This document shows positions 10,681 through 11,056 of a stretch of DNA of 12,608 nt, one piece after another. Numbering within the stretch: the stretch's first letter is position 1; the number at the start of each line of letters is the position of its first letter. The DNA lies in the IMG/VR virus record IMGVR_UViG_2537562191_000063; one strand, 5' to 3'. Under the pieces are notes generated by a model. It saw only the letters and a list, made by a program, of their open reading frames with translations, ran no database searches and was not told the origin of the DNA. The translations under genes and the position numbers were made by a program. Source of the stretch: a virus. Its lineage: Duplodnaviria > Heunggongvirae > Uroviricota > Caudoviricetes.

Positions 10681-10830
10681 ATGAGATATGACAATGTTAA
10701 ACCATGTCCATTTTGTGGTTGTCCATCAGTAACGGTGAAAGCCATTTCAGGATATTACCGAGCGAAGTGTAACGGATGCGAATCCCGAACCGGTTATGGT
10801 GGAAGTGAAAAAGAAGCACTCGAACGATGA
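10681..10830 (+). pseudogene. ralR: ralR (Lar restriction alleviation / RalR DNase toxin) truncated by a nonsense codon; full-length frame would run to 10875
   Basis: Translation MRYDNVKPCPFCGCPSVTVKAISGYYRAKCNGCESRTGYGGSEKEALER then TGA at 10828-10830. Continuing the same frame gives NKRTTGNNNGGVHV and TAA at 10873-10875, which reproduces the 64-aa RalR I recall with Trp50 at the TGA position. Confidence 0.75.
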
Positions 10831-10867
10831 AATAAACGAACCACTGGAAATAATAATGGAGGTGTTC

Positions 10868-11056
10868 ATGTATAAAATTACCGCCACTATTGAAAAGGAA
10901 GGTGGCACTCCTACTAACTGGACAAGATATTCAAAATCTAAACTAACGAAATCAGAATGCGAAAAAATGCTCTCAGGTAAAAAAGAAGCAGGCGTTTCCA
11001 GAGAGCAGAAAGTAAAACTGATAAATTTTAATTGCGAGAAACTTCAGTCCTCGTGA
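10868..11056 (+). CDS. ydaC: YdaC-like small protein (62 aa from the ATG at 10868; alternative ATG at 10856)
   Basis: GGAGG at 10858-10862 is 5 nt before the ATG at 10868; MYKITATIEKEGGTPTNWTRYSKSKLTKSECEKMLSGKKEAGVSREQKVKLINFNCEKLQSS. The start overlaps the stop of the full-length ralR frame. Confidence 0.7.
   Translation: MYKITATIEKEGGTPTNWTRYSKSKLTKSECEKMLSGKKEAGVSREQKVKLINFNCEKLQSS

Follow-up and report, generated by a model that had tools for sequence, protein, structure and literature searches.

Does a toxin gene in which codon 50 of 64 has become a stop still encode a toxin? The question is raised by ralR (also called lar) in IMG/VR virus record IMGVR_UViG_2537562191_000063, a stretch of 12,608 nucleotides (nt) that is referred to here, at its full length, as the window. 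RalR was first described as Lar, for restriction alleviation, and RalR/RalA is a type I toxin-antitoxin system of the Rac prophage of Escherichia coli K-12 (Guo et al., 2014, PMC4041452). The initial annotation of the window, which was made from the sequence alone, identified the gene as ralR of a Rac prophage with the small RNA (sRNA) RalA as its partner. The identification is borne out by the NCBIfam RalR equivalog model, by the Pfam Lar_restr_allev family and by the RefSeq gene context, and the pairing with RalA by the published system. Two options were left at that stage, namely an inactivated toxin or one expressed only by low-level UGA read-through. In our judgement these are the right options, and the evidence favours inactivation: we consider it likely that the window carries a natural, single-origin loss-of-function allele of ralR with an orphaned antitoxin RNA.

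The ralR frame and its TGA codon

Three features describe the interrupted gene.

10681..10830, + strand: truncated ralR (lar) frame, 49 codons and TGA (open reading frame; Pfam PF14354; NF007260; RefSeq ralR WP_001443846.1)
10828..10830, + strand: premature opal TGA in place of Trp50 (TGG) (alignment to K-12 DNA and to the K-12 protein; W50 in 75 of 75 family members)
10831..10875, + strand: in-frame ralR remnant, codons 51-64 (NKRTTGNNNGGVHV), and the original TAA (translation; 100% identical to K-12)

The gene starts at ATG 10681 (product MRYDNVKPCPFCGCPSVTVKAISGYYRAKCNGCESRTGYGGSEKEALER) and its frame ends after ...SEKEALER at TGA 10828-10830, the next base being A (10831). When Trp is placed at the TGA, the translation is exactly the 64-residue RalR of E. 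coli K-12 MG1655. Sequence, translation and the K-12 protein therefore agree with the initial annotation, which had read the stop and the base after it in this way, had taken the downstream frame to TAA 10873-10875 as the C-terminus of RalR, and had noted that the full-length gene would overlap the start of ydaC (rcbA), whose ATG is at 10868-10870. Only two bases of the ralR coding DNA differ from K-12, at 10825 (CGA against AGA, both Arg49) and at 10830 (TGA against TGG). The product ends at R49 and retains the zinc ribbon (C9, C12, C30, C33), the β-hairpin and most of the C-terminal helix.

The gene belongs to a Rac prophage, of which the window covers the integrase-proximal end. All 12,608 bases are 100% identical to chromosomal DNA of E. 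coli O111:H8 strain 7-54 11A, in which the annotated genes run recE, recT, ralR, the DUF1187 gene (rcbA/ydaC), xisR, intR and then the host gene ttcA. The RalR/RalA system of K-12 Rac (Guo et al., 2014, PMC4041452) occupies the same locus at ttcA, with the same order recE-recT-ralR-rcbA/ralA-xisR-intR; the ralR DNA is 99% identical, and RalA and its 16-nt pairing site are both identical. The two differ at codon 50, where TGA in place of TGG gives 49 rather than 64 residues and removes residues 51 and 52. They also differ in the T-run upstream of ralR, which is one T shorter in the window, and in rcbA, which encodes 62 rather than 69 residues.

The direction of the change can be read from other lineages. 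Trp50 is kept in Salmonella, in Citrobacter and in the E. coli alleles other than TGA among those retrieved, with W50S as a degraded exception, and TGG is therefore the ancestral state. The converse, that TGA marks the ancestral or normal ending of the family, was ruled out, since the W-N-x-R motif is found in all other lineages and throughout the Lar family. Reference RalR proteins that also end in ...EALER, which the initial annotation had named as a point that would speak against a nonsense change, exist only in a trivial sense: they are this same allele, and independent lineages keep Trp.

The 49-residue product is still recognised by the family models. It scores 39 bits with PF14354 (Lar_restr_allev; cutoff 28.6; profile positions 2-52 of 58), 40.3 bits with TIGR03655, which is a bare pass against the cutoff of 39.6, and 126.9 bits with the NF007260 RalR equivalog (cutoff 113), where the match covers positions 1-49 of 64 only. 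The loss of residues 50-64 costs about 15 bits (53.5 to 39 with Pfam, 55.3 to 40.3 with TIGR03655). The product resembles the Lar family (PF14354, TIGR03655) in its CPFCG...CxxC zinc-ribbon core and helix and in scoring above the thresholds, and differs from it in having no terminal W-N-x-R motif, which is invariant in the family. Because its equivalog score exceeds the cutoff, the NCBI pipeline names the protein RalR without a pseudogene flag (RefSeq WP_001443846.1). The TGA allele is thus already present and named in public databases, and our literature searches found no paper on a truncated ralR allele.

Residues removed by the stop

Searching 1.84 billion cluster representatives with a profile yielded 3968 hits of the Lar family. 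Conservation was assessed on the 75 single-domain proteins of at most 75 residues among the best 150 of these hits, in clusters of at most 50% identity. W50, N51 and R53 are invariant (75 of 75), as are C9, P10, F11, C12, G13, C30 and C33, and the invariance of W50, N51 and R53 was confirmed with an 80-sequence alignment. The invariant residues of the zinc ribbon, C9 to C33, are all present in the 49-residue product. W50, N51 and R53 are placed at or after the TGA and are not translated, so that the W-N-x-R motif is missing. The shortest natural members of the family are 50-53 residues long and end directly after W-N-x-R, so the minimal domain ends with this motif. The RalR tail TGNNNGGVHV is not conserved in the family.

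A 64-residue relative with 92% identity has an AlphaFold model, which shows a β-hairpin (17-22, 25-30), a helix at residues 43-52 and a disordered tail. On this model the stop would remove the last turn of the only helix. A fold search with the model against the PDB gave nothing at E ≤ 0.001. The weaker matches are generic zinc ribbons only (Elf1/ELOF1, aIF2-beta, RPC10), with no nuclease fold among them, and the search neither supports nor tests the published claim that RalR is a DNase. A sequence search of solved structures returned only spurious weak matches to a chitin-binding protein, and these were set aside.

The published mutants bear directly on the lost residues. In the mutagenesis reported by Guo et al. 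(2014, PMC4041452), the toxicity of RalR is reduced by changes at positions 14, 37, 39, 49, 51 and 52, and is abolished by non-synonymous changes in the codons under the 16-nt repeat; the purified K52Q protein does not cleave DNA. Judged by family conservation and by these point mutants, the 49-residue protein is very likely inactive as a toxin.

On the basis of these observations, we propose the following course of events. A single G-to-A transition would have turned Trp50 (TGG) into opal TGA, so that ribosomes would release a 49-residue protein with a four-cysteine zinc ribbon. This protein would be without the last turn of the helix and W-N-x-R, in which published mutagenesis shows N51 and K52 to be needed for toxicity and DNA cleavage, and should be neither toxic nor active. 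The other parts of the module (RalA, the 16-nt pairing site and rcbA with its own ribosome-binding site) would be untouched, leaving an antitoxin without a working toxin. The allele would have arisen once, on one Rac haplotype, and would since have become common. Directly observed are the mutation with its ancestral state and frequency, the fact that the lost residues are conserved, and an intact RalA; the loss of activity is inferred.

It might be argued that the 49-residue zinc ribbon has a function of its own, such as the restriction alleviation or modification enhancement of Lar or a non-toxic binding of DNA or protein, and that only toxicity has been selected away. The four cysteines, the β-hairpin and most of the helix are indeed kept, the fragment is still above the thresholds of the curated Lar and RalR models, the allele is frequent and otherwise undamaged, and the shortest natural members of the family are hardly longer. 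These members, however, retain W-N-x-R, and since this motif is as invariant as the zinc ligands, the common function of the family should need it. Moreover, point changes at 49, 51 and 52 already impair RalR in the mutagenesis cited above (PMC4041452), and the TIGR03655 score is barely above its threshold. A residual function of this kind is accordingly quite unlikely, and loss of function remains the better account of the fragment.

Frequency and origin of the allele

The alleles were counted by megablast with a 55-nt query that has the variable base at its centre, which forces every 28-nt seed to include that base. With the counts taken as lower bounds for divergent haplotypes, TGA is found in 310 of 5426 complete E. 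coli genomes, each 100% identical across the 55 nt, TGG in 1310, and the ralR locus in any form in 1920. At least 1000 contigs encode the exact 49-residue protein, and the TGA allele is also in three GenBank phage records. The carriers include many O157:H7 strains, O55:H7 RM12579, O111:H8, O26 and O103, and also isolates that do not produce Shiga toxin, from humans, pets, livestock and water. The allele is common, mainly in Shiga-toxin-producing lineages.

These numbers dispose of the simplest alternative, which is that the TGA is a sequencing or assembly error, or a mutation private to one strain. The identical 55-nt stretch in the 310 genomes and the 49-residue protein on so many contigs mean that it is not an assembly artefact; the genomes are independent and come from many laboratories and serotypes, and the phage records add to them. 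Nothing in favour of an error or a private mutation was found, and its probability is negligible. The initial annotation had suggested a survey of Rac-like prophages for the same allele. Such a survey does find it: the allele is not peculiar to this prophage, being frequent and already in databases.

The main value of the result is a caveat for annotation. Hundreds of complete genomes (O157:H7, O55:H7, O111, O26, O103 and others) annotate an intact RalR while encoding a 49-residue fragment that is without residues essential for the published activity. In O157:H7, O111, O26 and related genomes, RalR is most probably a dead toxin accompanied by an orphan antitoxin RNA. Surveys of toxin-antitoxin systems in pathogenic E. 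coli that count the 49-residue gene as a functional toxin probably overcount, and work on RalR/RalA in K-12 should not be transferred untested to strains carrying the TGA.

The origin of the allele was examined in sampled carriers. Over the 2 kb from ralR to intR, the window is matched by seven others. Six of them are chromosomal loci (L005-L009, and L003, from the genome that the window itself comes from) and the seventh is a phage record (L004); EC09 alone departs from the window, by a single 1-bp indel. The flanking host genes ttcA and dbpA differ in allele among the chromosomal loci. A further carrier, E2865 (locus L001), has the same TGA-containing recET-ralR-rcbA, but its xisR-intR is K-12-like, with 44 differences downstream of 11122. 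The recombination breakpoint was placed between 11054 and 11122, just after rcbA, and E2865 shows mosaicism among Rac prophages. Recurrent independent origins are unsupported, as the 310 copies are identical over the 55 nt and the sampled carriers share one recET-ralR-rcbA haplotype. The pattern is consistent with a single mutation that spread and whose flanks then recombined. In this sense the feature is nothing unusual: a nonsense polymorphism of single origin in the toxin gene of a prophage.

Other degraded ralR alleles are present in the protein database: some are frameshifted close to the C-terminus, one is W50S, and two are fusions of RalR to RcbA. They show that the gene decays repeatedly, which fits a weak selection to keep the toxin. 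In one of the fusions (P0012; the other is P0015), RalR residues 1-46 are joined to the C-terminus of RcbA exactly at the two 16-nt repeats. This arrangement implies a deletion by recombination between the repeats (10805-10818 / 10977-10990) that would also have removed much of ralA.

It is worth adding two observations on the surrounding prophages. In strains L73 and F344, an unrelated recET module adjoins a similar ralR. In EC09 (locus L009, positions 1-2823), the Rac prophage is further degraded: an IS1 remnant interrupts recE, and recT has a frameshift. No change is seen in the ralR-rcbA-xisR-intR block.

RalA, rcbA and possible read-through of the UGA

The antitoxin side of the module comprises the following features.

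10803..10818, + strand: RalA target site in the ralR messenger RNA (mRNA) (AAGTGAAAAAGAAGCA), the 16-nt repeat of Guo et al. (direct repeat 10805-10818 / 10977-10990; same as K-12)
10874..11052, - strand: ralA antitoxin sRNA, full length, antisense to rcbA (Rfam RF02694, 225.1 bits, gathering score 170, model 1-179 of 179)
10975..10990, - strand: RalA segment (complement of AGGTAAAAAAGAAGCA) that pairs with the ralR mRNA (repeat family D1; PMC4041452)
10868..11056, + strand: rcbA (ydaC), DUF1187 protein of 62 residues, whose start overlaps the original ralR stop (PF06688, 132 bits; NF007283; WP_001302840.1)

The counterpart of ralA in K-12 is b4714, and there are no base differences within the RNA. 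The element in ralR lies 10 nt upstream of the new stop and has 11 contiguous matches with 10975-10990; the published pairing between ralR and RalA involves 16 nt, including a contiguous run of 11, and is located about 105 nt past the end of ralR (PMC4041452). The product of rcbA begins ATGTATAA, and the gene has its own ribosome-binding site, GGAGGTG, at 10858-10864; this site and the rcbA start both lie within the ralR remnant. The ralR stop, 38 nt upstream of rcbA, should remove only the coupling of termination to reinitiation, and not the expression of rcbA.

RalA is antisense to rcbA, and this alone can explain its preservation without a working toxin. The locus would then be a natural example of toxin loss with the antitoxin RNA retained, probably through the overlap of that RNA with another gene. 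It is comparable to decayed chromosomal type I toxins such as the inactive hok-like loci of K-12 (PMC4041452), in which the toxin frame is likewise disabled while the RNA partner and the locus are kept. Their lesion, however, is an insertion or rearrangement, whereas that in ralR is a single nonsense codon, and RalA differs in probably being preserved as the antisense of a coding gene, rcbA.

The intact antitoxin could also mean that the toxin is attenuated rather than dead. Near-cognate read-through of the UGA by Trp-tRNA (tRNA, transfer RNA) would rebuild the wild-type 64-residue RalR, at no more than a few per cent of the normal yield and with higher yields at low temperature or under nutrient stress, and RalA would still be needed against the residual toxin. 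Because the lost codon was Trp, each such event restores exactly wild-type RalR. The stop context is UGA-A, and in E. coli tRNA-Trp is described as misreading UGA particularly readily when A is the next base (Engelberg-Kulka, 1981, as cited in PMC5289835). K-12 reads through UGA at rates of about 2% (37 °C) and 4% (25 °C), which reflect competition between Trp-tRNA and release factor 2 (RF2) (PMC10570021); by mass spectrometry TGA is read mostly as Trp, at rates that depend strongly on context and stress (PMC11126739). In addition, the frame beyond the TGA remains open, with the sequence that it has in K-12, and neither RalA nor its target site is damaged. The ralR locus thus shares with the known cases an opal codon followed by A and the insertion of the ancestral residue.

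The known cases differ from ralR in other respects. No recoding signal is evident at the ralR TGA, and nothing points to the use of read-through there or to selection for it. The window has no tRNA genes, and so no nearby suppressor tRNA. The rates were measured in K-12, whose RF2 has an unusual Thr246; other E. coli lineages have Ala246 (PMC5373646). The Ala246 form of RF2 is the more active one. Lower read-through is therefore to be expected in O111 or O157 hosts. In the toxicity assays described by Guo et al. (PMC4041452), toxicity was demonstrated only with overproduction driven by isopropyl β-D-1-thiogalactopyranoside (IPTG), and a toxin made at 1% or less of its native level would probably have no effect. 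The 45 nt downstream of the TGA are identical in all sampled carriers and in K-12, but they contain the rcbA signals and the haplotype is near-invariant everywhere, so that the conservation of the frame and of RalA is equally explained by the overlap with rcbA and by a young haplotype. We consider read-through that matters to the cell unlikely. Such a self-repairing nonsense codon would be of interest if true, and nothing in the data requires it.

A more specific version is that the TGA acts as a dosage switch, with read-through rising in the cold, in starvation or at low pH, and making the toxin or Lar activity conditional on stress. On this view, hundreds of pathogenic strains would have a reason to retain RalA and the downstream frame. 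We consider this version very unlikely.

Several points count against a simple loss of function. The conservation representatives were found with a profile that itself contains WNxR, and the sample is therefore somewhat biased. Our searches found no literature that maps the restriction alleviation of Lar to the C-terminus of RalR. The TGA allele is frequent and has not decayed further, for which the youth of the allele may be an explanation. The 14 downstream codons are still open and identical to K-12, though they are constrained anyway by the overlap with the ribosome-binding site and start of rcbA. Finally, UGA-A is leaky and Trp is inserted, so some full-length wild-type RalR must be made. 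An inactivated toxin gene beside an intact RalA is still the reading that we favour.

Some observations on the neighbouring sequence may be added. The TGA stop of rcbA at 11054-11056 gives a product of 62 residues, in line with the 61-position Pfam model of DUF1187. In K-12 the same codon is AGA and the product has 69 residues; the stop sequence of the window type is found in at least 738 complete genomes, and the K-12 RcbA reference protein looks like a stop-loss extension on this comparison. The base that is changed at the rcbA stop is 2 nt upstream of the 5' end of RalA.

The G-to-A change at 10830 turns ATGGAA into ATGAAA, a 4-of-6 match to the -35 hexamer, 16 nt from AATAAT (10827-10854). 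The creation of an rcbA promoter by this change was rejected: only 9 of 12 positions match the consensus, the predicted start falls inside the rcbA ribosome-binding site, and the match is probably due to chance.

A strong hairpin separates the recT stop from the ralR start (10620-10668, core GGCGGUGUAAUGCACCGCC; -24 kcal/mol, z = -4.8 against shuffled sequences). It runs into the T-run just upstream of ralR, which has five T here and six in K-12. The hairpin could be a terminator or attenuator that sets transcription into ralR; a simple terminator scan did not call it.

At the other end, the first 340 or so bases of the window (1-340) are the end of an IS1203 element of the IS3 family, inserted in a DUF4014 gene. 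The insertion is specific to strain 7-54 11A, and the remaining O111 genomes match the window from base 341 only.
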